DNA of 37,865 nucleotides from Candidatus Hadarchaeota archaeon (GCA_964433595.1 CAYSRF010000002.1:1-37865); one strand, 5' to 3'; counted from the first letter of the stretch, positions 2,623 to 36,999 are shown. The notes: generated by a model not told the origin, from the sequence alone. Program-made: numbers and translations.

Positions 2623-3210
2623 ATGACGACAATGCTGAGAAAGATCGTAATTGATGACAAGTTCATAAAAGAGTGGCACCGCCGATACAACAAACCTGAG
2701 ATCGGAGGTGGCTACGTAGAATATGAAAACCTTATCGAAAAAGTTTCTAGAGAAGTTTCCCAAGGCGCAATCTCTAAATCCACATTTATTCGTATCTTGG
2801 ATTGGAAAGCGCCTCGTGTAAAAGGTATTGTAAAGTTGGACAACTTTGATGATTACGCGAAAGGTATCAAACAAGCTTTACAAGCTCCAGAAGATCGCAA
2901 GTTGCCAATTTTGGATGACTTATACGGTATTGGTGTTCCAGTTGCATCAACAATTTTACATTTTAGTTATCCATCAATTTTTCCAATTATGGATGTCCGA
3001 GTAGCAGAAGTTTTGTATTATTCTGGCTACCTTAACGCAAAATCAAGAACCCAGAATAATTATGTTAATTTTCGCAGAGTTATCTTGAATATCGCTCAAC
3101 AATCTAAATGTACACTCCGAGAGATAGATAAAGCTCTGTTTGCTTATCATAAGAGTGAACTCGAACCTAAAATTAGAGGTGCTATAGGAAAAGCGAAGAG
3201 GTGTTTGTAA
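2623..3210 (+). CDS. Helix-hairpin-helix protein, possible HhH DNA-glycosylase-superfamily member
   Basis: LPILDDLYGIGVPVASTILHFSYPSIFPIMDVRVAEVL is an HhH (hPhGIG-type) motif followed by an Asp-containing helix. No closer family recognised. Confidence 0.35.
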   Translation: MTTMLRKIVIDDKFIKEWHRRYNKPEIGGGYVEYENLIEKVSREVSQGAISKSTFIRILDWKAPRVKGIVKLDNFDDYAKGIKQALQAPEDRKLPILDDLYGIGVPVASTILHFSYPSIFPIMDVRVAEVLYYSGYLNAKSRTQNNYVNFRRVILNIAQQSKCTLREIDKALFAYHKSELEPKIRGAIGKAKRCL

Positions 3211-3717: not shown

Positions 3718-4022
3718 AAAACCGGGACCAGCCCGGAAAAGACACACCCCTCACGGTAATTGCATTTATCATTTTGCGCAAATAAAGTTTTTGAGTACCT
3801 AAGATTTTGAGGATTTTTCCTTCTTTGTTAGATAGCGCCTTTTTGTGGTGCAGGTTCAAATCCCGCTGACTGCACTAAGGCTAACTAAAATAGCCCCTCA
3901 AGTAAGGACGGAGACAGGGCACGGGCAAGAAACGATGCCTAGTCCCCACCTGCAGGAAACCCTTGCCGGAGGAACCGTTTTTTCACAACATTAGCAAAAT
4001 TTAAATACTTTTAATAATACTA

Positions 4023-5318
4023 ATGTTATTGATGAAAGAAAAGAAATTATTCCCCAGAGATCTCTTGCCCAAGCTCGAAAAATGGATTGACCGGAGGGAA
4101 GCCTTCGCGATCAAGGGACCGAGGCAATCGGGCAAGACCACGCTTTTAAGGATCCTAGAGGAAAAGCTGGCCGACAAGGGAAACGTGGTCTTTCTGAATT
4201 TTGAGGACCCTGACGTTCTCGAGGCTTTTGAAGCGAACCCGAAGCGGTACGTCGAGAGCTTCATGCCCAAGCGGGGGAAGCACTATTTCTTGATGGACGA
4301 ATATCATTACGTCAAGGATCCGGGGAAGAAACTCAAACTGTTGTACGATAGCTTCGAGAACGCGAAGTTCGTGGTCACGGGTAGCTCTTCCTTAGAGCTG
4401 AGTGGTGCGATGGCGAAATTCTTGGTCGGAAGGGTGTTCTTCTTCGAGCTACTTCCCCTCAGCTTCCACGAATTTTTGGTTGCAAAGGACAAACGGTTGG
4501 GTAAGCTTTACGAGCGAAAGAACAGGGTGATCAAGGAGTTTCTGCTCCAAGGGAGGAGGGCAGGGCTGGAAGAGGATATCTTCATCGGGGAGTTCCAACC
4601 CTTCTTCCACGAGTACCTAACATTCGGCGGGTACCCGGCGGTGGTAAAGGCTGGAGACATCGAGACCAAGCGGATGATCCTGAAGGGCATCTACGACACC
4701 TACGTATCCAAAGACGTGATCGAATTCCTGAGATTCACGGATGCGTTCAAGTACCGGGATGCCGTCAGGGCCTTGGCGGCGTCGGTCGGGGGTTTGATAA
4801 GCTACCAGGGGATTGGCTCGGCCATCCAGAGCTACTTCAAGGAGCTGAAGAGGATCGTATCCATCTTATCTGAAACCTACGTGATAGCGCTGGTTCGGCC
4901 GTTCTCAAGGAATCCCAGGACCGAGCTCAGGAAGACCCCAAAGGTTTACTTTTTCGATCTGGGGTTGAGGAACCACGTGATAGACAACTTCAACCCGATC
5001 GAGAAGCGAACCGATGCGGGAGCGGTGGTCGAGAACCTAGTTTTGCTGGGCTTGATGCGCACTTTTCCGGGTGAGCCGATAAACTACTGGCGGACGATAG
5101 CGAAAGCCGAAGTCGACTTCGTGCTCAGGTTGGGCGGGGAGCTTGTCCCGGTCGAGGTCAAGTATCAAATTTTCAAAAGACCGAAGATATCGAGGAGTTT
5201 GCGGAGCTTCATCAACACCTACAAACCCGAACGCGTCTTGGTGGCCACCCGTGACTTTTGGGCGAGGGCCAAGCTAGGGGGGGCTGAAGTGTTGTTTGCG
5301 CCCGCTTGCTACCTGTAG
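4023..5318 (+). CDS. AAA-family ATPase with DUF4143-type C-terminal domain (COG1373-like)
   Basis: Walker A GPRQSGKTTLLR and Walker B YFLMDEYHYV. The C-terminal AEVDFVLR...VPVEVKYQ is a nuclease-like module typical of AAA_14/DUF4143 proteins. Confidence 0.7.
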   Translation: MLLMKEKKLFPRDLLPKLEKWIDRREAFAIKGPRQSGKTTLLRILEEKLADKGNVVFLNFEDPDVLEAFEANPKRYVESFMPKRGKHYFLMDEYHYVKDPGKKLKLLYDSFENAKFVVTGSSSLELSGAMAKFLVGRVFFFELLPLSFHEFLVAKDKRLGKLYERKNRVIKEFLLQGRRAGLEEDIFIGEFQPFFHEYLTFGGYPAVVKAGDIETKRMILKGIYDTYVSKDVIEFLRFTDAFKYRDAVRALAASVGGLISYQGIGSAIQSYFKELKRIVSILSETYVIALVRPFSRNPRTELRKTPKVYFFDLGLRNHVIDNFNPIEKRTDAGAVVENLVLLGLMRTFPGEPINYWRTIAKAEVDFVLRLGGELVPVEVKYQIFKRPKISRSLRSFINTYKPERVLVATRDFWARAKLGGAEVLFAPACYL

Positions 5319-5738: not shown

Positions 5739-7445
5739 TTAAGGCTTGGTTGCTATTTCCTCTTGAGTTGGTCTGCTTTTCTCTGGTATCGTCTGGATAA
5801 TCGCCCCTCGGAATAATTTCATCTGTTTTGCATACTCCAAAATATCGAGCTTCCCTCTTGTTGTTAATTCTAGTCTTGGGAAGATTTCTACATCAAGATC
5901 TGTCTCATCTTTCACCTTATTTACAATATCCTTGTATAACCCCAGTCCTATGAAGAAGATTTTATCGTGTCTCCTCAATTTACCTTTCAATTCTTCTACA
6001 AACTTTGGGACATCACTTTCCTGCATCTTGTAATCATAAGTTGGTATTCGCTTGCTCCAATCGATAAACCCGAATTTGGCCGAGAGGATCCCTATTTCTA
6101 CAGGTAAGTCAAAGATATTGTTCCAAAATACCTTGAAGACAGGTGAAGGCAGATACCTTTGATAAGCAGACAATAGTCCCGATGATTCATTTTTCTTCCC
6201 CGTGCAGCTCGTGAAGACGAAAATTCGAGGTGAAATTTCTCTGAGTTTTCTATAAAAAATGAATGTATTGTGAAAACCTCTCCGCCTGTTTCTGTTGTTT
6301 CCTCTGAAAATGATCACCTCAACTCCCACATTTTTGCAAATGGTACATGAACATTTTTTCCATGGCATATCAGTCAAAGTTTCCCTGTAATATTTTTCCA
6401 ATTCAGGTCTTTCGCCAATGGTTCTGTCGTATTCTAAAATTGTTTTCATTACTTCGGCAATTGGAATCTTACCTTGGTCGTATAGCCTCATGGACTCCAT
6501 TGCCTTTCTTTCCAGTTTCGCTAATTCTTCTGGATTTGAAATACTCTTAACACGATGACTTCTTTCTGTTTGCGGTATCCTAATCGCACTGTAACCCCTT
6601 CCGTCGACCGCATAATAATTATTTTGAGCACTTAGCCAAGCTCTTCTTAGAAATGATGCCGAATCAAAACTTGTTACTCCATATTTCATGAAATCTGGGA
6701 TTATTTGAGGTCTAGCGGCCCCAAAGACATGGATATCTATTTTACGTTTAGTTTCATCCATCTGTTTCTTAACTTCTAACCAAACCCCTTTAATTACATT
6801 AATAAGAGTTTTGGTCTCCTCTTTCTTACCTTCCAATCCAGTGGGGGCCCGAGCTAAACCCCCCAGGCCGATATAATCATAACCCACTTTCAACAATTCT
6901 CTAACAGCTCTCCTGTAGGAGTCTACATCCCAACCTTGAGCAACGCCAATTATTCTTATTGATTGCAAATACTCGTCTTTTGAATGCCATAATTCAAACA
7001 TTTCTTGTGCATTTTCAAGAGTTATTTTCCATCGTTTTTCATATTGGTCTTTATGCATAGGAACTATTAAATGATCAATTGAAACTCCGTAATTAAAACC
7101 GCATTTGAGGTAATAATCCAGAGTTTCAGAGGGTTTGAAGGGAGGTTCATCTTTATCTATGTACCCCCAGGCTCCACAGTCCCCCATAATCTCGAATGTT
7201 TTTGGTAAACGTAAGAATTGATGAATGCCTTCTCTTAGAATTTGTTGGTATTTTGCTTTATTTTCCACGATCTTCATTCTTGAAACTAGGACACCATCGA
7301 TTGGAACATTTTCCAGTCCAAAAATATTCCATACATAAACATCATTTTGTAAAGGATTTTCGTAATGAGTTTCTGAATGGTTGTCGGTGATGAAATCATA
7401 TTCGGGGTCTACACGATCGTCCCATTCTGGAATGAAGTACTTCAT
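5739..7445 (-). CDS. dpdA: TGT-superfamily transglycosylase, DpdA-like (putative DNA 7-deazaguanine transglycosylase), with an extra C-terminal domain of about 165 aa
   Basis: N-terminus MKYFIPEWDDRVDPEYDF. TIM-barrel motifs GDCGAWGY, IGLGGLARA, HVFGAARP and FDSASFLRR. Zinc site CSCTICKN-x22-H. No PUA tail. The C-terminal part (FVFTSCTGKK...ILSAKFGFI...IPTYDYKM) is reminiscent of a DUF6884-type domain, with low certainty. Confidence 0.65.
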   Translation of the reverse strand: MKYFIPEWDDRVDPEYDFITDNHSETHYENPLQNDVYVWNIFGLENVPIDGVLVSRMKIVENKAKYQQILREGIHQFLRLPKTFEIMGDCGAWGYIDKDEPPFKPSETLDYYLKCGFNYGVSIDHLIVPMHKDQYEKRWKITLENAQEMFELWHSKDEYLQSIRIIGVAQGWDVDSYRRAVRELLKVGYDYIGLGGLARAPTGLEGKKEETKTLINVIKGVWLEVKKQMDETKRKIDIHVFGAARPQIIPDFMKYGVTSFDSASFLRRAWLSAQNNYYAVDGRGYSAIRIPQTERSHRVKSISNPEELAKLERKAMESMRLYDQGKIPIAEVMKTILEYDRTIGERPELEKYYRETLTDMPWKKCSCTICKNVGVEVIIFRGNNRNRRRGFHNTFIFYRKLREISPRIFVFTSCTGKKNESSGLLSAYQRYLPSPVFKVFWNNIFDLPVEIGILSAKFGFIDWSKRIPTYDYKMQESDVPKFVEELKGKLRRHDKIFFIGLGLYKDIVNKVKDETDLDVEIFPRLELTTRGKLDILEYAKQMKLFRGAIIQTIPEKSRPTQEEIATKP

Positions 7446-7489
7446 TGAACTACCCCGCTAGATCTTGTTTACAAATAGATTTTCGTTGT

Positions 7490-7639
7490 TTATATTGTTG
7501 CATTCCTCTTTTCTCTGAAGTATTCGGCTAAAATCGATCTGATGGTTTCTTGAAGCGTATCTAGTCTTCTTCTTTTCTGCTCCAACTCTAAAGCTCGGTG
7601 CATAGATCCCGGGATAGACATAGTAAATTTCCTTGCCAT
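7490..7639 (-). CDS. Ribbon-helix-helix (CopG/Arc/MetJ-type) small DNA-binding protein, 49 aa (not in the ORF track)
   Basis: My own translation gives MARKFTMSIPGSMHRALELEQKRRRLDTLQETIRSILAEYFREKRNATI. An AAGGAG sits upstream. The beta-strand plus two-helix pattern is present. It is about 80 percent identical to the ORF at 11777..11917. It replaces the 72-aa track ORF, which is in another frame. Confidence 0.65.
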   Translation of the reverse strand: MARKFTMSIPGSMHRALELEQKRRRLDTLQETIRSILAEYFREKRNATI

Positions 7640-7704
7640 ACATCATTCTCCTTCTTTGGAATTCTTTGGAAACCAAAAGATATATAAATATACCATTCTA
7701 TAGA

Positions 7705-7726
7705 CTTCTTTAGACTTCTAAAGAAG
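7705..7726. promoter_or_regulatory. Perfect 10-bp inverted repeat CTTCTTTAGA-ct-TCTAAAGAAG in the divergent promoter region; candidate RHH operator
   Basis: Read directly from the sequence. It lies between the A/T-rich TATA-like tatataaatata (7681-7691) and ATG 7742. The core TCTTTAGA/TCTAAAGA recurs at 11923-11982 and 10973-10986. Confidence 0.5.
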
Positions 7727-7741
7727 CAAAAGTGAGTAAAT

Positions 7742-8806
7742 ATGATAATGGAAGGTTCCTTTCCGGTGGTTTACCCTAGCACGAAGGACATCATACTCTC
7801 ACAGTTAAACCTACAAAAGATAATGACAAGTGTAGCTTTTATAAACTCTGAGCAGAAAAAGCAGAACGTTCATGAAATCATAAATTTCAACAAATTAATC
7901 TTTTTAGATTGCGGAATTTTTCAAAGAGGTTCTTATAAAAAATACGACACATGGGGCAAGATATGCAAATACCGTGAAAAGCTTATTGATTGGTACGCCC
8001 ATCTCAAACCAGACCTTGCAAGTTCTCTAGATTTGCCTAGTCTACACATTTTCAAAGATAAAATTAGAAAGGAGAGATTAACTTGGTCGATTGAGAATTA
8101 CAAACTAATGAAAACTCAACTTGATGTTCCTTTAGTTCTCGGGATCAGCGTTTTTTCTATAGAGGATATTTATCTAACTAAAAACTATATTCAAAAGATT
8201 CTTGGGGAAGAACCTGTTCTCATAGGACTAGGTGGACTGGTTCCTCTAATGAGATCCTGTAAAACTCATCCCGCGCTTGGGAAATTGATCCTGAAAATAG
8301 TATACCAAACGCGAAAGAATTTTCCTCACTCTTTCATTCATGTTTATGGTCTGGGAGACCATCAATGGTACCCACTCACTCGGTTAGTTGGGGCATCAAG
8401 CAGTGATTACGCAGGATATTACTACATTACTGGTAGGGGGGGAATACTCCTACCGAATTCCTCGGAAAAGTATGTTCTTAGAATGATTAAGCAAAAAACT
8501 AAAAAAGGTTTTGTTTACTATACTCGTTCTAATAACAAAATATTTTCAATAAAGGAACTAAGGCAACTCTATGGATGTCGATGCCCTTCGTGTAAAGATT
8601 CGGATCCTACTTTACTAGAATTCGATCGCAAGAAACGTCTAGTCCATAACTTGTATACGATATTGTCCGAAACTAGGATTGTTGATGAGTATTGTAACCA
8701 AAATGATATTGAAAGATTAAAAAAATATGTGAAAGATCGATTCACTCATGGAAAGAATGAGATGAAAGCTTACGTGAAATACGCTCTAGAACTTGTGGAA
8801 AAGTGA
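7742..8806 (+). CDS. Second, highly divergent TGT-superfamily (DpdA-like) protein
   Basis: Motifs FLDCGIFQ (compare TGT DSGGFQ), IGLGGLVPL, HVYGLGDHQ and SSSDYAGYY, plus zinc site CRCPSCKD-x17-H. It has no PUA domain and no C-terminal extension. Confidence 0.6.
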   Translation: MIMEGSFPVVYPSTKDIILSQLNLQKIMTSVAFINSEQKKQNVHEIINFNKLIFLDCGIFQRGSYKKYDTWGKICKYREKLIDWYAHLKPDLASSLDLPSLHIFKDKIRKERLTWSIENYKLMKTQLDVPLVLGISVFSIEDIYLTKNYIQKILGEEPVLIGLGGLVPLMRSCKTHPALGKLILKIVYQTRKNFPHSFIHVYGLGDHQWYPLTRLVGASSSDYAGYYYITGRGGILLPNSSEKYVLRMIKQKTKKGFVYYTRSNNKIFSIKELRQLYGCRCPSCKDSDPTLLEFDRKKRLVHNLYTILSETRIVDEYCNQNDIERLKKYVKDRFTHGKNEMKAYVKYALELVEK

Positions 8807-8886
8807 AAAAATATAATGTCATTGGATTTACTAAGAAAAATTTTAGAAAATTTGTACGTGACTAAATCATGTCGTCGAAAACCAGA

Positions 8887-10791
8887 CTAACCCGGCGCAC
8901 CCGTTGATTCGATCTTCCTAATGAAATCGTCTAAATCGCTTAGATTCAGAAAAACGTATATTCCAGTTTTAGCAAGGTGGAAAAGGTCTTCCTCGCGCCA
9001 ATGTCCATCTGGCACGAAAAGAATCATGTAATCATCTTTATATTTGGTTTGGATACGTCCATTACTAGAATACACATCAAAAAGGGTTCCAAACGCCCTT
9101 CCAGACTCCTCAGGGCTTCGATGTTGGACTGTGCTACCCAGTGCGAATCTGGACTTTAGTAAGATCGTCATTTGATTACCCTTGATGCACCAGGGGTAGT
9201 TAACAGTACCTTGGTTATGGAGCAGACGTTCACCATGGTTAGGGTAAGTTTGTAGTTGATCTCTCCGAAGTTTAATCAATTGCTCGAATAGTGTCTTAAT
9301 CACATAATTCCTTTCATGTCTATATCTAGATACTATAGAGTTAATAACGTAGTCAATTGGGCTAACTTTTGGATTATTCAACTCTTGCCAAACTCGTTCC
9401 CCAACACTTCTTTTTGACGTAACCAAGCGGGAGTAGATTGTACCGTTACGAACCAACCGATCCCTCTCTTTCAACAATAAATTAGTCAATCTTGTCATTT
9501 CTTGTCTCGAGAAATCTCGAACATAGAAGTTGACTTCCATCCGGTTGGTTCGGATCACGGAACGGATACTGCTTTCCTTCAACCCGAAAACGTCAAGAAC
9601 GATTTTCCGCCAAATTCGCCTCTTCTCGATATCGGGAGTATTCCAAAATCGTTGAAGAGTATCGTTAAAATTTTTTGAAAATAAATCTTTGAGGTGGGCA
9701 CTATACTTCTCCCATTGCCGGAGGACATTGAAGTTATCCAGCAATTCTCCTCTCCTTTCACTTAATATTGTCGCTGCTGAAGTCTCTATCTGCTCTTCCG
9801 AAACCCCTAATTTGGAGAAATCGATAAACAAAGAAGAAACAATCATTTTTCTCCCTATCCGAAATTTCGCGTCACGGCTTCTCTTGATGAGATTCAAAGA
9901 GGTGATAAAATCAACTGCGTTCTTCACTTCCTCAACAGGTAAAGAAAGCGCATTCACGATCTCATCTAATTTACGGGTTCCATGAGAAATTAGGTACTTC
10001 AAAACCTTCTTTTCAGTATTTTCCAGTATAGCATTAAGGATAATGGCATATCTGAGTGAGGGTCGCGAACTTGGAACACCATATGTTTTGATCTGTTTTT
10101 CTAACAACTTCTGAGGAGAGATCCATCTAGGTCGTCTCGTTTTGAGATAGGAGTCTCGGCAAGAAGACCAAAAATACTCCAGCTCTGATCTTTTGAGTCT
10201 TGTGAGATTTTTGAAGTACACAATCAAATTGTTATAAGCCCACCTAACATTCTTCAAATCAGGCCCTGGTCTTTCGAACCTGCTCTGAATATACTTGTAA
10301 AATGGCCCCTCAGGTCTTTCCTCTTTCCATTTATTATGAAGATATTTCAAATCTTCCTCTAAAATGAAAAAGTCATCTTTTTTTTGGTATTGTGGGTAAA
10401 AAACTGAATCAAAAAGAACCTCCTTTCCGGAAAGTAACCATTTTGCCCAGTATTTCTTATTCCCGAAAACAATGTTCACTGCGATGCATTTTGGTCCCAA
10501 GATGCGGGAGAGTTTGATTTCTTTAAGTTCATCAAAAGTCTCCCATGCGGGATACTGTGAATTACGAGTTGGCGAATCTATCTCCTCCCCTGTTGTGCAG
10601 AAAATCGCATAACGTACATTTTTGTGTGAAAGTAAGATATCAACATGACATCTCAGAGAGGAGGAACTGAACTGGCGAGCGATGAACTTCGGATCATAGA
10701 TACTACTCAAAGCAGCATAGGTTAGTTGCTCTAATCGCCAACCATGATCGGCTGCAAGACCACGTCCTGGATGCCAAGTTTCTGCCGACAT
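8887..10791 (-). CDS. Hypothetical 634-aa protein with a central winged-helix-like segment; no recognisable family
   Basis: Long ORF in the AT-rich block. GGGAG precedes the ATG and TTTAAATA lies about 40 nt upstream. LKYLISHGTRKLDEIVNALSLPVEEVKNAVDFITSLNLIKR looks like a wHTH. The terminal regions have possible nuclease-like acidic motifs (HVDILLS..., ...DYMILFVPDGHWREED), which are unproven. Confidence 0.55.
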   Translation of the reverse strand: MSAETWHPGRGLAADHGWRLEQLTYAALSSIYDPKFIARQFSSSSLRCHVDILLSHKNVRYAIFCTTGEEIDSPTRNSQYPAWETFDELKEIKLSRILGPKCIAVNIVFGNKKYWAKWLLSGKEVLFDSVFYPQYQKKDDFFILEEDLKYLHNKWKEERPEGPFYKYIQSRFERPGPDLKNVRWAYNNLIVYFKNLTRLKRSELEYFWSSCRDSYLKTRRPRWISPQKLLEKQIKTYGVPSSRPSLRYAIILNAILENTEKKVLKYLISHGTRKLDEIVNALSLPVEEVKNAVDFITSLNLIKRSRDAKFRIGRKMIVSSLFIDFSKLGVSEEQIETSAATILSERRGELLDNFNVLRQWEKYSAHLKDLFSKNFNDTLQRFWNTPDIEKRRIWRKIVLDVFGLKESSIRSVIRTNRMEVNFYVRDFSRQEMTRLTNLLLKERDRLVRNGTIYSRLVTSKRSVGERVWQELNNPKVSPIDYVINSIVSRYRHERNYVIKTLFEQLIKLRRDQLQTYPNHGERLLHNQGTVNYPWCIKGNQMTILLKSRFALGSTVQHRSPEESGRAFGTLFDVYSSNGRIQTKYKDDYMILFVPDGHWREEDLFHLAKTGIYVFLNLSDLDDFIRKIESTGAPG

Positions 10792-10980
10792 TTTTCTCCC
10801 TATTGAATTTGTTTACATTTTTGGATTAAAAACTATTTAAATCATTTTACGTTAATTTTGCCGCGAAAATAAGCTGACCCATGGAGAATGGTGCTATAGG
10901 TCCCCGAAGGGCCTAAGAAAGCTGTTAGAGAAACACCCAAAGTTACTAACACGAAAAATTTAGGGGACATGACTTTAGAT

Positions 10981-11775
10981 TTAGAATTTAAGATTCCGTT
11001 GAATAAACGACTCAACTTGACGGTTCTTGGTTTGAAAATTTTTCTTTTCTGTATCAAAATCATCTATTATGCACACCTTTTCCCTCGCAAACTCCGATTC
11101 TATTACATGGGCAAAAGGCAAATTCAAATTAGATAGAATTAATATCGCGGTTGGTCTAAAAATTTTGAGATAATTTTTTATTTGCTCTTTTAACCTCCTT
11201 TCAGGCTTCCCAAGTGTTGGGTCAACGATCATTCTTGGGTTGATCACCTTTCCCTTGCCTAGCGGTTCTGGGCCGAAATCATTCACTATTGGGATATATG
11301 CTTGGATTTTTTCGAAGTCATCTACAAGTTCAAGTCTCCAATACATATTCACTGTTTCTCTAAAGGGCGAAAGACGTTTAATCTTCACATAGATTTGTCC
11401 TAAAACAATAGAGATGTCTGGCCTAAGACGGCTTCGCAGAGGTGGATAACCATCGTAGTAAATAGATAAGGTCAGATCTGTTCTATGTCTTAGAACTATT
11501 GATGGGGACAACCAATTTGCTAACTGAAGGATCGGGATTCTCGATATGCGGATGCCACGCGTCATTGAGAATTTTGGGGCGATGACGTGATTTGAGTCAA
11601 TGTATTTTGGTAGTGGTTTGAAATCAAGTTTTGTTAGATCTTGGAAGATACAATTAAAGACAAACTCTTCATATTTTCTAAACTTAGATCTTCTTTCTCT
11701 TGAGCTAAATGAAATCCCATAACTCGACAGAGGATAACCGTTCGAAGAACCACCATCTTTCATTGATTGATACAT
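10981..11775 (-). CDS. Hypothetical protein of about 264 aa, no recognisable family
   Basis: I prefer ATG 11775, which is 1 nt after the stop of the RHH gene, over the track GTG at 11835, which lies inside the RHH gene. RPDISIV and MIVDPTLGKPERRLKEQIK are weak PD-(D/E)xK-like hints only. Confidence 0.5.
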   Translation of the reverse strand: MYQSMKDGGSSNGYPLSSYGISFSSRERRSKFRKYEEFVFNCIFQDLTKLDFKPLPKYIDSNHVIAPKFSMTRGIRISRIPILQLANWLSPSIVLRHRTDLTLSIYYDGYPPLRSRLRPDISIVLGQIYVKIKRLSPFRETVNMYWRLELVDDFEKIQAYIPIVNDFGPEPLGKGKVINPRMIVDPTLGKPERRLKEQIKNYLKIFRPTAILILSNLNLPFAHVIESEFAREKVCIIDDFDTEKKNFQTKNRQVESFIQRNLKF

Positions 11776-11776
11776 T

Positions 11777-11917
11777 CTACCCCATTTTTTCTCTGAAATA
11801 TTCAGCAAGAAGTGATCGAATGGTCTGTTGGACACTATCGAGTCGTCTTCTCTTTTTTTCTTCTTCTAAAGCCCTAAGCATAGATTCTGGAAGGGACATA
11901 GTGAATTTTCTTGCCAT
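11777..11917 (-). CDS. Ribbon-helix-helix small DNA-binding protein, 46 aa, paralog of 7490..7639 (not in the ORF track)
   Basis: My own translation gives MARKFTMSLPESMLRALEEEKKRRRLDSVQQTIRSLLAEYFREKMG. Its stop TAG (11779-11777) is followed after 1 nt by the ATG of the next gene. Confidence 0.65.
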   Translation of the reverse strand: MARKFTMSLPESMLRALEEEKKRRRLDSVQQTIRSLLAEYFREKMG

Positions 11918-11922
11918 AGCTA

Positions 11923-11982
11923 TCTAAAGAAATCTAAAGAGGGGAGAACTTAAAGAAGGGTTGTTCTTTAGAATGCTAAAGA
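11923..11982. promoter_or_regulatory. Cluster of TCTAAAGA/TCTTTAGA sites upstream of the second RHH gene; candidate operator array
   Basis: Tandem tctaaaga at 11923-11930 and 11933-11940. Inverted repeat TCTTTAG-aatg-CTAAAGA at 11965-11982. A related cttaaagaag at 11949-11958. Confidence 0.5.
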
Positions 11983-11997
11983 CTTAATTTGACGTCC

Positions 11998-12008
11998 AAA
12001 AAAAAAAA
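11998..12008 (-). terminator. T11 tract (minus strand) just downstream of queD; archaeal oligo-T terminator candidate
   Basis: An A11 run on the plus strand sits 46 nt past the queD stop and separates the que operon from the next promoter region. Confidence 0.45.
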
Positions 12009-12053
12009 CGTCTTTAAGGATAAAAAATAATAACTAGCTTACTATTTTTTTGA

Positions 12054-12524
12054 TTACCTTATCTTTTTCTCAAAACATGCAAACTGACCGGGAGACTCTT
12101 CAACCTTGACAATTATCTTTTTAATATTTTTATGTTCACTCAAACTTTCGGCGAGTTCGTTCGCGATTAGCCTAGCAATCTCCTCAACTGTAGTGTTAAC
12201 GATAGGCAACCAAACAACATCTTCGGACGGAAATCCAAACTCCTTACCATGAAAATTTATGAGAGTTTTGCCCTCGATAGATCCCTCTCTTCTTAACTCG
12301 TTTTTCTCTGGCAACAATAGCCTGTGATCATATCGATCGCAGATCTCATCAACTTTTTTCTTCAACTTGATGAAATCAACAACAAGTCCTCTTTCATCAG
12401 GCTCACCCTCAATGCTGACCCCAACTTTCCAGTTATGGCCATGCAAATGCTCACATTTCTCATGCCCGATAATTAAATGTGTGGCCGAAAAACCGATGTT
12501 TTCCTTTTCTAGCCCGATCCTCAA
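12054..12524 (-). CDS. queD: 6-carboxy-5,6,7,8-tetrahydropterin synthase
   Basis: PTPS-family motifs SATHLIIGHEKCEHLHGHNWKV. TTG start overlaps the upstream stop (TTGA). Confidence 0.8.
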   Translation of the reverse strand: MRIGLEKENIGFSATHLIIGHEKCEHLHGHNWKVGVSIEGEPDERGLVVDFIKLKKKVDEICDRYDHRLLLPEKNELRREGSIEGKTLINFHGKEFGFPSEDVVWLPIVNTTVEEIARLIANELAESLSEHKNIKKIIVKVEESPGQFACFEKKIR

Positions 12525-13450
12525 CTGTTCACCTCCAGTTCCACCTTTAAATCAGAGACAAACCCTTCCCTTTCCGCAAAAGCATCATGTTGATGTATGC
12601 TTTCAAGGTTGAGCTGTTTTGCGGTCACATAGGCATCGCCAGGGAGATCCGGATACCTGTTCAGTAACCCTCTGATCATCTCCCTCACGGTTTCCTCAAC
12701 GAATTTTGGCTTAAGATAAGCCCTAGTTATGACCTCAACTTCATCCTCACGTTTCAGGATCTCGTAAAGTTGTTCGCTCATGGAACCCTCAACAATTTTG
12801 ATCAAGTCTTCGGCCTCAACTCGATAACCAAGCGAGAGTTCGACCATTAAAGTGCCCGTACCTCGCTGACTATGTGAAGCAATCGGTATTCTTTGTAGGA
12901 TTTCGTCGATTTTCGCCTTATCTATCCCAGATTTCTCTAATTCCTCCCTAACCCTTGATTCCATAACTTCTTGAGCACAAGGGCAGGTTGTCATCCCCTG
13001 TACTTCGACCCCGATCGTCCTCTTCATTTTCGTTTTTCCATCAATTTTCTCAGCTTTTGCCCCGGCCAAAAGTTTGTATAAAGTCTGGGTTTTTGTCTTG
13101 AGTTTCGGGGTTTCCCTAATTACCGGATAGTCAGCCCTAACCCTGACCTCGGCTTTTTTTGCATTTGGATGAACTCTAAGTAATTTTAATGCAATCTCCG
13201 AGCACATGTCTTCAGTATCCGAAATCTGACCTGTTGCGACTTCTTCGATTGCCTCGTTTATTACTTGAGTGCTTCTCGACATGTGAATTCCAGTCTGTCT
13301 AGGGTCAAGATCAACATAGGCCTCGATTTCGGTATTAAGGAAGTTCTCTTGTTCGCCCCTCTTTCTATAAATCTGCTTTCTGACGTTTGTAACTCCCACC
13401 CTGCTAAGCCTTATTGGAAATGTTGATTTTTTGTCCTGAAACTCCATCAT
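12521..13450 (-). CDS. folE2: GTP cyclohydrolase IB family (FolE2/MptA type)
   Basis: Motifs MTTCPCAQE and [10 protein letters not shown], with a length typical of COG1469 enzymes. ATGA overlap with queE. Confidence 0.75.
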
Positions 13451-14217
13451 AACACATCCATCAACTTATGAACTTGGGGAATCACCATGACGTTTTCAGG
13501 TTCGAAGACCTTTCCAGCTATTTCGGCAAGTCTGAAAAGCTCCTCTGTTGATGGCCGTTCCTTCACGGTTCCTGTGGGGGTAACGGGTTGGATCACGAAT
13601 CTGATTTTCAGGTCCGACAAGTCATTACATACTTTTCTGAACTCGTCGGGGTTGGTATTGGGGAGGATTATCGTCTTTACTATTGTATCAAGTCCGTGTT
13701 TAACTGAAGTTTTGATGCATCCTATCTCATTCTCATAGAGTTTTTCCCAACCGTTTTCTGAGGTGGCGTTATGATTTTTTGGAAGCTTCACATCGATTGC
13801 AGCGTAATCAAAATGATCGACGACTTTTTCAAATGTGGATTTTAATGCCCCATTTGTCTCAAGGTAATTTCTCCAACCTTGCACGCGACACCCTTTGGCA
13901 AGCGATCCAAGGAAATCCCCCGAAAGAAGAGGTTCGCCACCTGTGAATGATATGCTATGAAGATCAGGAGTAAAAAGCAATTTAACTGATTTTATAATGT
14001 CATTTACATCTATCGGATTTTTCACTGTCTTGAAGTTTTTTGATCCAGCTTTGGTTTCTATCCTACAAACATCGGGCCTCATTTCCTTAAACTGGAGAGT
14101 GTCACAATAATTGCAATTTAAGTTGCAACCAGCGATCCTCACAAATATCTGCCTTCGGCCGACATAGGGTCCTTCGCCTTGAAACGAACTGAAGATCTCG
14201 CCTACATAACCTTTCAT
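13447..14217 (-). CDS. queE: 7-carboxy-7-deazaguanine synthase (radical SAM)
   Basis: N-terminus [34 protein letters not shown] is the QueE signature with the radical-SAM cysteine cluster. Confidence 0.85.
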
Positions 14218-14219
14218 GG

Positions 14220-14900
14220 TTAGACCTCGTACTTGATTGGATCCTTAACCCCAACTTCCCTGAATCCCCTTTTCCTATGCTGACAACTTTCACAGACTCC
14301 GCAATGTTTTTCTTTACCAAAATAGCAACTCCAGGTCAATTCAAATGGAGCATTGACTTCTATTCCCTTCTTAATGATGCCCACTTTGTTCAAGTTAATT
14401 AAAGGGGCCTCGATCTTTGGTTTAGGTTCTGTGAAGGAAGCTGTTCCCCGCTCTAAAATAAGGTTAAATGCTTCCACGAAGGGAGGTCTATTATCCGGAT
14501 ACCCCAATCCCTCCTCTGCGTTAAATCCAACGAATATTTTTTCAGCTCTCAGACTTTCAGCATAAGCTCCCGCTAAAGACAACAAGACGGTGTTTCTCAT
14601 AGGAACCCATGTTGGAGGGGTTTCCTTTGCCCTTAACGAAACTTCTTTTTTAACCGGAATCTCTAAGCTTTCATCGGTCAAACTTGAATGCCCCAATTCT
14701 TTCAAAAATGTTAAATCGACGAACTTCCTTTCTTTGGCCCCTAATCTCTCGGCTATTTTCTTAACAGCTTCTATTTCCCTTTTCTCAGCTTTATGTCCAT
14801 AATTAGCGTGAAGAATGTAGATTTCGTATCCCTGCTTTTTCGCGATCGTTGTTGCGACGGTTGAATCAAGTCCTCCTGAAAGAACGCAAACAATTTTCAT
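14220..14900 (-). CDS. queC: 7-cyano-7-deazaguanine (preQ0) synthase
   Basis: PP-loop VLSGGLDST and C-terminal zinc site [14 protein letters not shown]. Confidence 0.85.
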
Positions 14901-15223
14901 TTCAACCTTCCCCCTAGAAGATCTTCGTATACTTCCCTCATGTAGAAGACGCTGGCCGCAGTTTCCTCATCTAATCCACATCTACAGGCCCTGCACTTCG
15001 GGCAGATCAACCATCCACATTTTGGACAGACATCAGTTTTGGTGACATCGAATTTCTCCCCACATTTGAAACAATAGACCTCGGGTTTTGTGAAAAATTT
15101 CAAAAAGTTCTCAATTGCTCTTGAGAGAGGTATGCGCCTTTCATCTGATGTTTTCTTTGCTTCTTCAACCACATCCTCGTCTACTGTAATAGTCAACTTC
15201 GTTTTCTTATTCGACGTAGTCAT
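14897..15223 (-). CDS. Ribbon-helix-helix domain fused to a double CxxC zinc ribbon; first gene of the que operon (putative regulator)
   Basis: KLTITVDEDVVEEAKKTSDERRIPLSRAIENFLKFF is an RHH. It is followed by CFKCGEKF...CPKCGWLICPKCRACRC. ATGA overlap with queC. Confidence 0.6.
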   Translation of the reverse strand: MTTSNKKTKLTITVDEDVVEEAKKTSDERRIPLSRAIENFLKFFTKPEVYCFKCGEKFDVTKTDVCPKCGWLICPKCRACRCGLDEETAASVFYMREVYEDLLGGRLK

Positions 15224-15230
15224 ATGTGTT

Positions 15231-15250
15231 AATACGTATTAATTCGTATT
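15231..15250. promoter_or_regulatory. Tandem decamers AATACGTATT / AATTCGTATT between a TTAAATA box and the start codon of the RHH-Zn gene; candidate operator
   Basis: The first decamer is a perfect palindrome and the second differs by 1 nt. They sit 8-27 nt upstream of ATG 15223, and a TATA-like ttaaata follows on the minus strand (leaderless-type geometry). Confidence 0.4.
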
Positions 15251-15448
15251 TAAGCTTTTCGGCGTTTGGAAAGAGAAAAAATTCCTACTTAGCTTATCCA
15301 CGAGCCGCCTCCACTCCTCGCCCCTCGCACGGTCGGTATATTTGGTGAGTGCTTTGAGTTCGCGGTAGTTCGCGCGCGATTACCTTACACGCGGATACTT
15401 CTCCACTCGCCATCTTCATATTTATAACATTTGCGTTCAGTGAGGCTT

Positions 15449-15510
15449 TGCACAAAAATTACCAAAACTCGATTTTTGCACAAAAATTACCCCGTCTGCA
15501 CAAAAATTGA
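15449..15510. repeat. Three direct copies of TGCACAAAAATT(A/G)
   Basis: Copies at 15449-15462, 15477-15490 and 15497-15510. The middle copy is embedded in the palindrome ATTTTTGCACAAAAAT. Confidence 0.6.
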
Positions 15511-15608
15511 TTTTGGACACCATTCTAAGACTCTTGTTAACTTTTATTGCCATCTCACCTAAGATCTAAATAAAGATAAAAGAGATTCTCTTGCAAGAGT
15601 TTGGTAAT

Positions 15609-16535
15609 ATGGGATCCGAGGAAGAAGTTCAAACTCGAAAAACGCAAATTGAAACACACAAAGAGAATCTTCGTAGAGCGATCGAAAAAGCAGAGGCAGC
15701 TAAAGAAGCTCTAAGAGAGGGGATAGCTAACAGGAAAAGGGTATGTGGGGATTTAGATGGGATAAAAGAATTGTCCTCTCAAGAACTTTCTGCGTTAGAA
15801 ATCATCGAACCTTTGGTTGCAAAAATTGATGACGATACCTGGCAAAGTTACGAAGGAATAGCATGTAGTGGTGCAGATTTATCTGGAACATTAAGTGCTT
15901 TCCATCGAGATATTCAAACTGAAGAAGCTGAATTCAGTGAAATTGCTACCGTATCTGGAGCTTCCATTACAACCGCTACTACTAGTGCAGTAAGTGTGGT
16001 CGATCTTTTTTCAGATTTCGATCTCCGTGTTAAAGAAATAAAGATACAAGATACTATCGTGAAGAATATAGAATTTATCCAGAACCGATTAAGCGAAATA
16101 GATCCGTCAATTGCTCAAGGAATCAGAATTCTTTTCCAAGATTGGAGTAGTTTGCCAAATTTTGAGAAATCAAAAAGGTTACTTGATTTAAGATCGTTGT
16201 TATTCTATCAATTTTTTGATCGATTTGCTCCAGAACACAGTTATTCAAAATGTCAATGGTACCGAGATGCAAAAGAAGGAACAATCTGTAGAAAAATGCG
16301 TTTTGCCCAGGTTAAGTTCTTTATTCAGGATTGCAGGGACGATTCAGAAATTAAGGAGTCGGTTCTCAAATCAATTGATTCTACGGCTAAGGATATGTCC
16401 CGCAATTTTGATGATATGTCGAATTATGGCAAACATGGAACATCAGGATCTGTGGCGGAGAGCGTATTTAGAGGCACAATCTCTTCTTTTGCAAACGTTC
16501 TGAGATTAAGAGACCAACTACGGGAGGTTTCCTAA
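15609..16535 (+). CDS. Hypothetical protein with an N-terminal coiled-coil-like region
   Basis: I prefer ATG 15609. An A/T-rich box taaataaagataaaag lies 25-40 nt upstream, and the palindrome CTCTTGCAAGAG (15588-15599) lies between them. No family recognised. Confidence 0.45.
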   Translation: MGSEEEVQTRKTQIETHKENLRRAIEKAEAAKEALREGIANRKRVCGDLDGIKELSSQELSALEIIEPLVAKIDDDTWQSYEGIACSGADLSGTLSAFHRDIQTEEAEFSEIATVSGASITTATTSAVSVVDLFSDFDLRVKEIKIQDTIVKNIEFIQNRLSEIDPSIAQGIRILFQDWSSLPNFEKSKRLLDLRSLLFYQFFDRFAPEHSYSKCQWYRDAKEGTICRKMRFAQVKFFIQDCRDDSEIKESVLKSIDSTAKDMSRNFDDMSNYGKHGTSGSVAESVFRGTISSFANVLRLRDQLREVS

Positions 16536-16836
16536 CTGCGGAAGAATAACAGGATACCAGGTTCAAATCTCGCTTCCGAATATGCGCACTTAAGAGAGTT
16601 CATCGTAGTCAACTCCAAATGCATTACATAAGTTCTTAAATTTCACAAGATTTCCCTCATCTTTTAAAACGTTTTGATACATATGCTTCATGGTCTCTAA
16701 ATATGTGATAATCTCATCCCTATTAGTTGTTGAAAAAACTCTATTGATTATCTCATCAACTGTTAAATCCTTATAGATTGGATCTAAAGCAGAAAATGTT
16801 TTACGCCAGTGTTATAGATGGACTAAATGAATTCTT

Positions 16837-27820: not shown

Positions 27821-28222
27821 TTTCTCAACTATCATTATTCAGAATTGCAGGCTATAACCATTTTGGGCGATAAAAAATATGCCGGCGAATCGACTGTAAC
27901 TCATCTTCTGTTTTAAGGCAGCATTTAGCTAAGCAGGCTACCACCCGCCTCCAGCAGGCGTTCATAGGCGGCAATTTGCCCTTGCATCTCGCGGAATGGC
28001 CGTTTCATCCTGCTTGACCCGACCTCAGCGTTCCCGCATCATGGCGCGAACCAGCAGGTGTCGTTTCTGTGCCATTGTCTGACTTTACAACCAGGCTCTC
28101 ACGAGCCCGCGAACCTGCTCGATGGATGAAGTTTCCTCAGGCTTTCGCCCGGGAGCTGCCCACCGACTCGCCAGCATTATAATTTTTAGCTCTCTAATCT
28201 TAAGAAGGTAGCTGGTGGGTGG

Positions 28223-36095: not shown

Positions 36096-36890
36096 TCAAA
36101 TTACCCATCTGACTTCTTTCCGTATTTTATTCAGTATGTTCTCGGGCAAGCCAGTTATCCTCTTTAGATTCTCTAACCTATAGTCGAGCAAATCTTTCGC
36201 CAGCATTATTTTTGCTTGAAATAGTCTATCCTTGGTAAATCCGGTGACCGATCTCAAAATCGTCGCAGGGTACAATTTTTTCCTCTCTATCATCTTTTCA
36301 AGGCTTTCCTTCCCAGGATATCTCCAGCTAGTTATCTTTAAGCCCACGCACTTCGCGTATTTCCTCGCGTCCCTCGAACATTTGGTATTGCAGATCAGCC
36401 AAGTATGGTCAAACTTTTTATCTAGGTCTAGGAACCTGGCGTAGCTGTACATAACGACCTTTAGGTCCGTGTGTATCCCGGGGGCGTTATGGTACTTGCA
36501 TTCTATCAGATAGCGTTTGTTTCCCTTCTCCGCAACAATGTCAACCTCATGTGAGATGCATTTTCCCTTTAAGATATTACCGACCGTGGTTTTGTAACCG
36601 TAATTTCGAAGCGCCTCCGCCATAAACTCCTCAAAGGGGAAACCAGCTGGGCCGAGCGACATGATCGCTCGTTTTAAATCGTACCTGGTCGCAGCGCGCG
36701 GTTCCTTTCTGAGCAGTCGGAGGGTGAGGTTTAATATTTTCTTGGTGGTTATTCCATCGTAGGCCCTCTTTTCAACCTCTTCAACGATCTCATCCGCGAG
36801 CTTCCTCGACGCCCCAGCCCTCAAGCAGGTGTTTCGAATCTTCTCGGCGTTGAACTCTTCCCTTTCGCCCGACGCTTTTACCACGTACAT
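36096..36890 (-). CDS. ATP-cone domain fused to a PD-(D/E)xK restriction-endonuclease-like domain
   Basis: The N-terminal VVKASGEREEFNAEKIRNTCLRAG is an ATP-cone. The C-terminal HEVDIVAEKGNKRYLIECKYH is a D...ExK core. I prefer ATG 36890. Confidence 0.6.
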   Translation of the reverse strand: MYVVKASGEREEFNAEKIRNTCLRAGASRKLADEIVEEVEKRAYDGITTKKILNLTLRLLRKEPRAATRYDLKRAIMSLGPAGFPFEEFMAEALRNYGYKTTVGNILKGKCISHEVDIVAEKGNKRYLIECKYHNAPGIHTDLKVVMYSYARFLDLDKKFDHTWLICNTKCSRDARKYAKCVGLKITSWRYPGKESLEKMIERKKLYPATILRSVTGFTKDRLFQAKIMLAKDLLDYRLENLKRITGLPENILNKIRKEVRWVI

Positions 36891-36999
36891 CTTCGCCGCC
36901 GTACTACTAATGTCATTCCAGCTTAATATCAACAGCTTGAATCGAGCGTAAATCCTTTAAATTTATGAGTTAGAAGAATGAGCTTATGAAGGAATTTGA

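Follow-up and report, generated by a model that had tools for sequence, protein, structure and literature searches.

How would an archaeon use a 7-deazaguanine supply that is encoded beside genes for enzymes of the kind that insert 7-deazaguanines into DNA? The question is raised by a stretch of 37,865 nucleotides from a Candidatus Hadarchaeota archaeon (GCA_964433595.1 CAYSRF010000002.1:1-37865, hereafter the window), which is part of an 84-kb metagenome scaffold. Within it, an AT-rich island at positions 5739-15250 combines an operon for preQ0 (7-cyano-7-deazaguanine) with two genes of the tRNA-guanine transglycosylase (TGT) superfamily. Bacteria, with their Dpd system, and viruses are known to modify DNA with 7-deazaguanines. 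A first-pass annotation, made from the sequence alone, had described a compact, Dpd-like island in an archaeon or its mobile element, and our analysis upholds the view of a Dpd-like island that belongs to an archaeon, was acquired horizontally, and carries a preQ0 operon of its own. The reading that we favor, and consider probable rather than secure, is that the locus is a self-regulated, horizontally acquired 7-deazaguanine DNA-modification island which resembles Dpd, is built from parts unlike the bacterial ones, and serves as a restriction-modification-like defense. From the sequences of its proteins, the island likely modifies DNA; a restriction role we infer only.

The argument starts from a fused gene and its two domains:

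5739-7445, minus strand: DpdA::DUF6884 fusion protein of 568 aa, beginning MKYFIPEWDDRVDPEYDF.
6234-7445, minus strand: DpdA domain, residues 1-404, a predicted DNA guanine transglycosylase (NF041059, PADLOC, PDB 7ui4).
5739-6224, minus strand: putative DUF6884 domain (PF21818), residues ~408-568, C-terminal to DpdA, recognized by a sub-threshold Pfam score and signature motifs.

Residues 1-403 of the fusion align to positions 1-405 of the 406 in the NCBIfam model NF041059 with a score of 393.1 bits (cut-off 200). The PADLOC DpdA model is matched with an E-value of 9.4e-109 and the structure of DpdA from Salmonella Montevideo (PDB 7ui4) with an E-value of 1.9e-72. The Salmonella residues Asp95 (acid/base), Asp130, and Asp256 (nucleophile), which are essential or substrate binding, correspond to D89, D124, and D261 of the window protein, and all three are invariant in nine archaeal fusions. 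The same holds for the zinc site C365/C367/C370/H392 in the Ins8 region and for Q170, which takes the place of Salmonella H181 and is Gln in all nine archaeal orthologues. The published DpdA subfamilies comprise bDpdA and DpdA1-4, of which DpdA4 is specific to archaeal viruses. Taken together, the model scores and residues classify residues 1-404 of the fusion as a bona fide bacterial-type DpdA (bDpdA).

DpdC of the bacterial system has been described as a DUF328 protein, and Pfam curators describe DUF6884 as a distant relative of YaaA (PF03883) with the signatures CxxxK and LSAxxG. Both signatures are invariant in nine of nine fusions (C414..K418 and S455-A456-K457..G459 in the window). PF21818 is on record at E <= 1e-5 for the fusions in L003, L004, L009, L011, and L012, and is also recorded in L005; PF03883 itself does not match the window fusion protein. 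DUF6884 and DpdA have been fused both ways, with DUF6884 C-terminal in archaea and N-terminal in Paenibacillus, and a free-standing DUF6884 lies beside DpdB-DpdA in Sinorhizobium. Fusions in both orientations, and in both archaea and bacteria, provide strong comparative evidence for joint action of DUF6884 and DpdA, in the place of DpdC. By its motifs the window domain is tentatively assigned as a distant relative within the YaaA superfamily, to which DpdC is assigned as well, DUF328 being the former name of the YaaA family PF03883. This fused, DpdC-like domain had been overlooked in the claim that no DpdB-K is recognizable. The rest of that claim stands: among 20 window proteins scanned with the PADLOC and NCBIfam libraries (the nine large island open reading frames (ORFs) and most of the larger flanking ORFs, two small ORFs of the ribbon-helix-helix (RHH) type lying outside the scan), DpdB and DpdD-K had no match, and the only PADLOC Dpd match was DpdA.

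Divergently oriented to the fusion gene is the second transglycosylase gene:

7742-8806, plus strand: TGT2, 354 aa, a putative transglycosylase with an arcTGT-like catalytic core and without PUA or C-terminal domains.

This gene had been called DpdA-like too, which our results do not bear out, since only the gene at 5739-7445 encodes a DpdA. The profile of the TGT2 family matches arcTGT (PDB 1iq8) with an E-value of 8.6e-17 as compared to 0.28 for DpdA (7ui4), and it aligns only to residues 74-331 of the 582-aa 1iq8 chain. TGT2 itself scores 51.7 bits against the arcTGT model TIGR00432 (cut-off 350) and 19 bits against Pfam TGT PF01702 (gathering threshold 26.3); precomputed PF01702 matches are on record for many members of its family. 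Neither the DpdA models of NCBIfam and PADLOC nor DUF6610 (DpdA4) match it. An hhalign comparison with the DpdA clade (probability 98%, 21% identity) points to homology at the superfamily level only. The residues D56, D97, G164-G165, D222, and C279/C281/C284/H302 do not vary across 21 sequences. The VDSG and LFD motifs of arcTGT, with its catalytic D95 and D249, align with D56 and D222 of TGT2, and the LDxP and GGxVP substrate motifs are kept along with the CxCxxC...H zinc site. We assign TGT2 to a new TGT subfamily with intact catalytic Asp and zinc residues, a placement made from hidden Markov model and profile scores rather than from a tree. The subfamily is rare, with 24 clusters (TGT2 and 23 relatives) in 5.8 billion proteins. 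A tblastn search of 50,697 phage records (INPHARED) gave no match at E <= 1e-3 and none to phage DpdA1-4, a comparison by sequence and not by a profile of each subfamily. No relative was confirmed in IMG/VR viral contigs or in 185,579 GTDB species-representative genomes, scans that were pattern-based, so that absence from them is weak evidence.

Two further large ORFs belong to no recognizable family:

8887-10791, minus strand: X, 634 aa, orphan family, present in 10/10 loci.
10981-11775, minus strand: U264, 264 aa, orphan family, variable partner of X.

They had been placed between the two transglycosylase genes and in fact lie between TGT2 and the preQ0 operon. To place them in context we read nine loci around TGT2 family members (L003, L004, L005/6, L007/8, L009, L010, L011, L012, and L018-20), which together with the window make ten; all-against-all protein clustering covered the window and eight of these loci, and L018 was examined separately. 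The trio of DpdA::DUF6884, TGT2, and X is present in all ten loci, with TGT2 next to DpdA::DUF6884 in every one of them. The gene order recurs in ten independent loci, and the arrangement of the island is thus more than chance. The orphans are not unrelated passengers, as X accompanies the transglycosylases throughout and U264 adjoins X in the window, L003, L004, and L018. Elsewhere, the position of U264 is taken by unrelated proteins of ~170 aa or 470-545 aa, for which Pfam gave nothing over threshold.

The relatives also carry extra genes, among them a third TGT (a DpdA paralogue, 40% identity), a free-standing DUF6884, MazG, DUF2400, and Prok-JAB. Their nuclease extras are a HerA(DUF87)-NurA pair, GmrSD_N/HNH nucleases, or a 1117-aa PLD protein. 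The window has none of these extras. The description of a minimal architecture therefore fits the window, which is the most compact form seen, and does not extend to its relatives with their HerA-NurA, GmrSD/HNH, or PLD modules. At L003 1-5324, L004 1-2417, L005 768-5097, and L009 11980-14414, a DUF87 ATPase of the HerA kind is accompanied by a NurA-like protein (606 aa, NurA 22 bits) and by GmrSD_N and/or HNH nucleases; GmrSD-type enzymes usually attack modified DNA, and their presence beside a modification module is odd. Divergent islands occur in samples ERZ23499174 and ERZ23498930, namely on scaffold_103 (the window), scaffold_577 (L003), scaffold_1514 (L011), scaffold_480 (L009), and scaffold_5277 (L012). 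The DpdA fusions of the latter four are only 33-34% identical to that of the window by tblastn, which suggests that the system has diversified within one community.

The precursor genes form an operon of five:

14897-15223, minus strand: RHH/Zn, an RHH protein (DUF6364, Pfam 41.6 bits) with a C-terminal Cys-rich Zn-ribbon, first gene of the que operon and presumed regulator.
14220-14900, minus strand: queC, 7-cyano-7-deazaguanine synthase (Pfam QueC 235.8 bits; TIGR00364 198.7 bits, cut-off 150).
13447-14217, minus strand: queE-like radical-SAM gene, putative CDG (7-carboxy-7-deazaguanine) synthase (Radical_SAM 54 bits; QueE equivalogs 60-63 bits).
12521-13450, minus strand: GTP cyclohydrolase IB (GCYH-IB) family gene, FolE2/MptA type (Pfam GCHY-1 227 bits; NCBIfam MptA 319 bits, cut-off 220).
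12054-12524, minus strand: putative queD, 6-carboxytetrahydropterin synthase, PTPS family (Pfam PTPS 93.9 bits; TIGR03367 QueD 76.8 bits, cut-off 89).

All ORFs that the first-pass annotation had named are present as described, as are the low-GC block and three 4-nt overlaps: ATGA at 14897-14900 (RHH/Zn-queC), ATGA at 13447-13450 (queE-cyclohydrolase), and TTGA at 12521-12524 (cyclohydrolase-queD), the last of which depends on a TTG start for queD. The claim that these genes encode the whole route from GTP to preQ0 is backed by model scores for QueC and for the family of the cyclohydrolase and less so for the remainder, with QueE and QueD below their equivalog cut-offs and MptA as the best cyclohydrolase equivalog (the FolE2 equivalog gives 148 bits, cut-off 215). 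The best NCBIfam matches of the queE-like gene are QueE equivalogs, all under cut-off, and the assignment is supported by the position of the gene between queC and the cyclohydrolase. A full route is well supported as a prediction from operon context, as distinct from four equivalog calls.

The operon is kept in most of the related loci. In L007 (14906-16314), a Vut_1/YhhQ preQ transporter with a DUF5591 protein replaces it, and in L018 (9560-10045) QueT does so; these two versions of the island would depend on salvaged preQ0 or preQ1. The exchange of the operon for transporters ties the conserved trio to 7-deazaguanine precursors and not to one supply route.

Beyond the nine large ORFs, two small RHH genes had been missed, RHH2 in the ORF list as well. 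Each lies at the head of a unit, and one of them borders the intergenic region shared with TGT2:

7490-7639, minus strand: RHH1, 49 aa, MARKFTMSIPGSMHRALELEQKRRRLDTLQETIRSILAEYFREKRNATI, ribbon-helix-helix-like, immediately upstream of dpdA.
11777-11917, minus strand: RHH2, 46 aa, MARKFTMSLPESMLRALEEEKKRRRLDSVQQTIRSLLAEYFREKMG, ribbon-helix-helix-like, heading the U264-X unit.
7640-7741, no strand: putative divergent promoter/operator region of RHH1-dpdA and TGT2, with palindromic CTTCTTTAGAAG / TCTAAAGAAG boxes and a TATTTATATA element.

The island accordingly divides into four units, RHH1-dpdA::DUF6884, TGT2, RHH2-U264-X, and RHH/Zn-queC-queE-GCYH-IB-queD. RHH1 is conserved in L004, L006, L007, L010, and L018. 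RHH2, which has no Pfam match and whose putative fold is read from its sequence pattern, has an equivalent in L004 (48-aa ORF at 13833-13979); its conserved 46-aa ORF overlaps the 5' end of the U264 ORF as first listed (10981-11835, 284 aa), which is too long. A 132-nt repeat with 73% identity links the RHH2 and RHH1 regions (second copy 7509-7640). In L005/6, L007/8, and L010, the gene heading the que genes or the salvage genes encodes a protein 60-64% identical to RHH/Zn.

Upstream of RHH1, CTTC-N4-GAAG boxes flank a TTTATA element in six loci (the window and five others). The 12-mer operator motif is not enriched across the window (9 matches vs 7 expected), and its relevance is drawn from its conserved position in these six loci. 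In four loci, the stretch from a TATA-like box to the RHH/Zn start codon contains a GTAT/ATAC palindrome; in the window this is a perfect 14-nt palindrome, TTAATACGTATTAA, at 15229-15242, just ahead of the start, and similar ones are found at the same place in L005, L007, and L010. A perfect 17-nt direct repeat, TTTGCACAAAAATTACC, is present upstream of the que operon in intergenic DNA (15447-15463 and 15475-15491, 28 nt apart).

The window is archaeal chromosomal DNA, as indicated by an archaeal RNase P RNA at 27885-28171, and its alpha subunit of pyruvate:ferredoxin oxidoreductase (POR) is 89-90% identical to those of two Hadesarchaea metagenome-assembled genomes. The G+C content at third codon positions (GC3) is 0.35-0.46 for the island genes as compared to 0.59-0.75 for most backbone genes (PcrB, POR, YjeF, NDT, ferritin), the exception being a P-type ATPase with 0.51. 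The island block is compositionally foreign and AT-rich relative to the backbone. Its GC3, an integrase in L010, and the plasmid-borne haloarchaeal and bacterial relatives described below speak for its horizontal acquisition.

What X contributes was approached by modeling. An exhaustive HMMER search over 1.84 billion sequences found 14 representatives of the family. An AlphaFold2 model from a 4-sequence alignment was unusable (predicted local distance difference test (pLDDT) 45.6), and a 17-sequence alignment was used instead (pLDDT 87.5, predicted template modeling score 0.85). In this model, X is predicted to consist of an N-terminal alpha/beta domain resembling restriction endonucleases, a winged helix in the center, a helical stretch, and a further alpha/beta domain at the C-terminus. 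The predicted N-terminal topology is alpha-beta-beta-beta-alpha-beta (H12-29, E37-41, E50-56, E59-67, H79-94, E103-109), and the winged helix-turn-helix (wHTH) lies at ~249-315 (HTH_9 23 bits; Sta1/Lrs14). The conserved residues are E21, D51, E84/T85, G110, W118, R558, E561, G596, and W598; E21 and D51 fall in the N-terminal domain and R558, E561, G596, and W598 in the C-terminal domain. Weak fold matches were obtained to AF1548, Can2, LmuA, Mrr, VRR-NUC, and MarR/ArsR winged helices, those to AF1548, Can2, LmuA, and Mrr all with E > 0.02. Sequence profiles of X and U264 gave only chance matches in the PDB. U264, whose family comprises 6 clusters in 5.8 billion proteins, has no Pfam, NCBIfam, PADLOC, or PDB match.

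On these grounds we propose the following scheme. The RHH/Zn-led operon (GCYH-IB, QueD, QueE, QueC) would convert GTP to preQ0, which the DpdA domain would exchange for guanine in double-stranded DNA by the double displacement of TGT enzymes, with D89 as acid/base and D261 as nucleophile. The DUF6884 domain, with its presumed YaaA-like 'cantaloupe' fold, would act on the DNA-embedded base and may convert it as DpdC does, e.g., to 2'-deoxy-7-amido-7-deazaguanosine (dADG); alternatively, it would supply the DNA-binding and base-flipping help that DpdB gives in bacteria. TGT2 would be a second competent transglycosylase with an arcTGT-type pocket, partnering DpdA on other sites or with another 7-deazaguanine substrate. 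X, with its nuclease-like fold and winged helix, and the variable U264 would form a DNA-recognition or effector module, probably one that tells unmodified DNA apart, and the island would then be a compact defense of the restriction-modification type. The three RHH proteins would autoregulate three units. Of all this, the homologies, catalytic residues, fusions, synteny, and regulatory boxes are shown by the sequences; that DNA is the substrate, what chemistry DUF6884 performs, and which roles TGT2, X, and U264 play are predictions from them.

Several observations weigh against this scheme. The core of the window lacks an ATPase, whereas DpdA of Salmonella requires the ATPase DpdB. The DUF6884 domain of the window reaches 22 bits (E 1.7e-4), under the Pfam gathering threshold of 30, and no DpdC model of NCBIfam or PADLOC matches it. 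The third strand of X lacks the canonical (D/E)xK, with conserved E84, E88, and K93 on the following helix instead, and Foldseek searches of the X model against PDB and BFVD gave no match with E < 1e-3. Nuclease activity is therefore an uncertain prediction for X, which might just as well be a cofactor of modification. Of the ten loci, only four have U264. On the precursor side, both QueE and QueD score under NCBIfam equivalog cut-offs, and the cyclohydrolase scores as MptA. The characterized product of MptA is a cyclic phosphate and not 7,8-dihydroneopterin triphosphate (H2NTP).

In the main rival reading, a mobile element or integrated plasmid would use the island for modification only, as an anti-restriction cassette that coats its own or host DNA with 7-deazaguanines, as phages do; X and U264 would be targeting or regulatory cofactors standing in for DpdB. 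Phage DpdA1-4 systems modify DNA without a restriction partner, and the relatives of the island are plasmid-borne and next to an integrase. X has its wHTH and no canonical (D/E)xK, and it occurs in all loci like a core modification subunit; by contrast, the window lacks the evident nucleases (HerA-NurA, HNH, PLD), which vary among loci. Set against this are the failure to find TGT2 in IMG/VR viral contigs or INPHARED phages, a window without integrase or replication genes and with the surroundings of a defense island, and the weak fold matches of X, which are mostly to nucleases. We regard a modification-only cassette as unlikely, though as the likeliest of the rivals.

In a more far-reaching interpretation, which we put forward tentatively and think unlikely, the trio would be a new, DpdB-independent form of archaeal epigenetic immunity in which two transglycosylases write a 7-deazaguanine mark, X is a modification-sensing nuclease or reader of a kind not seen before, and interchangeable small partners (U264 or the proteins of ~170 aa and ~500 aa) set the specificity. 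The two transglycosylases could then serve two bases, two sequence contexts, or as one writer and one editor or eraser. In a bolder form still, TGT2 itself would be the effector, acting by base exchange or excision on invading unmodified DNA.

Since the nearest solved relative of TGT2 is arcTGT, the island could also be read as host machinery for archaeosine (G+) at tRNA position 15, with the que operon supplying preQ0, TGT2 a truncated or split arcTGT, and DpdA a bystander. PreQ0 is needed for tRNA in most archaea, and no other arcTGT is visible within the 37.9-kb window. However, TGT2 has a catalytic core only (354 vs 582 aa in 1iq8), without the C-terminal tRNA-binding and PUA domains, and scores at 51.7 bits far from the arcTGT cut-off of 350. 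The protein is confined to loci with DpdA::DUF6884 and X (10/10), with 24 clusters in all and none found in the pattern-limited scan of 185,579 genomes. The GC3 of the island is foreign, and its relatives swap que genes for salvage transporters. A housekeeping role is improbable on this evidence. Least credible of all is a cluster for a free 7-deazapurine metabolite of the toyocamycin or tubercidin kind, with TGT-like enzymes acting on nucleosides: secondary-metabolite clusters are indeed marked by complete preQ0/CDG pathways that lack insertion enzymes, but such clusters are defined by the absence of dpdA/TGT, and the window has a high-scoring DpdA with DNA-type features and no tailoring or export genes.

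The DNA around the island holds further genes of interest. Its defense-gene neighbors are a TIR protein, a PDC-S01 protein, and a pP_pnuc-like protein. The first (23634-26282, minus strand) is an 882-aa protein built of a WD40 propeller at the N-terminus, a Roc/Ras-like GTPase in the middle, and a TIR domain at the C-terminus (TIR_2 68.6 bits; PADLOC PDC-S66). It sits in another low-GC block with HD-like and HxlR-like genes and looks like a candidate archaeal TIR defense gene. The second (4023-5318, plus strand) is an AAA_14/DUF4143 ATPase (PADLOC PDC-S01, E 8e-82) of host-like GC3 (0.74) between two low-GC blocks. The third (15591-16535, plus strand) has a pPIWI-associated nuclease domain (pP_pnuc_1 31.8 bits; PADLOC Aga_Nuclease) and is the immediate neighbor of the que operon; neither an Argonaute nor a pPIWI gene was found near it. 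At 36096-36932 (minus strand), a 278-aa protein joins an ATP-cone to a catalytic domain of the Mrr restriction-endonuclease type and to a C-terminal domain resembling AF1548.

A ParB-like gene at 879-1733 was considered as a hidden DpdB and ruled out: its product is a generic ParB/Spo0J, its GC3 of 0.66 is host-like, and related loci show no synteny for it. Two low-GC genes follow it, one for an Nmad2 ('nucleotide modification associated domain 2') protein (1985-2494, 98 bits) and one whose product (2623-3210) weakly resembles HhH/Ogg-like DNA glycosylases. This may be a second, separate DNA-modification-related cluster. Flanking direct repeats were sought as attachment (att) sites, and only a short 17-nt T-loop-like pair without a tRNA gene was found. 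The repeat, CAGGTTCAAATC[C/T]CGCT, resembles a tRNA T-arm, and its copies at 3851-3867 and 16558-16574 bracket 12.7 kb including the island. The match is short and ARAGORN called no tRNA at either copy; the pair may be remnants of tRNA-targeted integration.

The searchable literature yielded no description of any Dpd-like system from cellular archaea, nor of the TGT2 or X family or of fusions joining DpdA to DUF6884, in agreement with the earlier suggestion that the architecture is new. The DpdA core would appear to have been rebuilt in archaea with a YaaA-like fusion in the place of DpdC, without DpdB, and with an obligatory second TGT of a new subfamily and two orphan families. If this is true, deazaguanine epigenetics of DNA extends to the archaeal domain, and how DpdA works without DpdB becomes a question. 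DUF6884 would gain a concrete biochemical context from its independent DpdA fusions in both orientations and two domains of life. TGT2 and X would be new enzymes for sequence-specific base exchange or modification reading.

Among the closest known systems is dpdA-K of Salmonella enterica serovar Montevideo. With it the window shares the DpdA orthologue with the same catalytic Asp and zinc site, the preQ0 genes inside the island, a putative YaaA-superfamily partner in the role of DpdC, and a mobile island in a defense context. Unlike dpdA-K, the island is archaeal, lacks DpdB (a DGQHR/ParB-like ATPase) and the helicase/nuclease/PLD set DpdD-K, fills the DpdC slot with a fused DUF6884 that matches no DpdC model, and adds TGT2, X, U264, and RHH regulators. 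With the DpdA1-DpdA4 modules of phages and viruses (phages 9g and CAjan, Vibrio phage nt-1, phiSM, and Halovirus HVTV-1) it has in common the independence from DpdB and the pairing of DpdA with que genes. Its DpdA, however, belongs to the bDpdA family and not to DpdA1-4, and the island is chromosomal and cellular. Two TGT-superfamily proteins also occur together in some archaeal viruses, e.g., the DpdA and ArcS homologues of a Sulfolobus virus. TGT2 resembles arcTGT (P. horikoshii, 1iq8) in its catalytic core, LDxP/GGxVP motifs, and zinc site and differs in lacking the tRNA-binding C-terminal and PUA domains, in falling far under the equivalog cut-off, and in its confinement to Dpd-like islands.

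Wider relatives were found by a tblastn search of plasmids. On pART37 of Paenibacillus sp. 37 (L022 11158-24481), the points of likeness are a fusion of DUF6884 and DpdA, another TGT of small size, queC/D/E, and a VUT transporter. This bacterial locus differs in that DUF6884 is N-terminal (where the domain also matches PF03883 YaaA, E 3e-5), the second TGT (307 aa) is DpdA-like and not TGT2-like, DpdJ and DpdK are kept, and a KAP NTPase is present. A Sinorhizobium plasmid (L021 7065-13660) carries a free DUF6884 beside DpdB-DpdA-DpdB-queEDC; the RefSeq annotation of both variants is partial only. Haloarchaeal plasmids (pHsi139 of Haloarcula sinaiiensis ATCC 33800, one of Salinigranum marinum, and others), where the annotation goes no further than 'queuine tRNA-ribosyltransferase', lack X and U264 and have instead a ~295-aa hypothetical protein, a BrxC/D-like ATPase, and HNH or EVE genes. 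They share with the window the que genes, a long DpdA that carries or adjoins DUF6884, and a second TGT of ~344 aa that matches the TGT2 family best (E down to 2e-13), although it is only 22-25% identical to TGT2 and far more canonical by Pfam TGT (107 bits). Because such clusters reside on plasmids of cultured haloarchaea, H. sinaiiensis ATCC 33800 among them, the prediction of 2'-deoxy-7-cyano-7-deazaguanosine (dPreQ0), dADG, or another 7-deazaguanine in DNA is directly testable.

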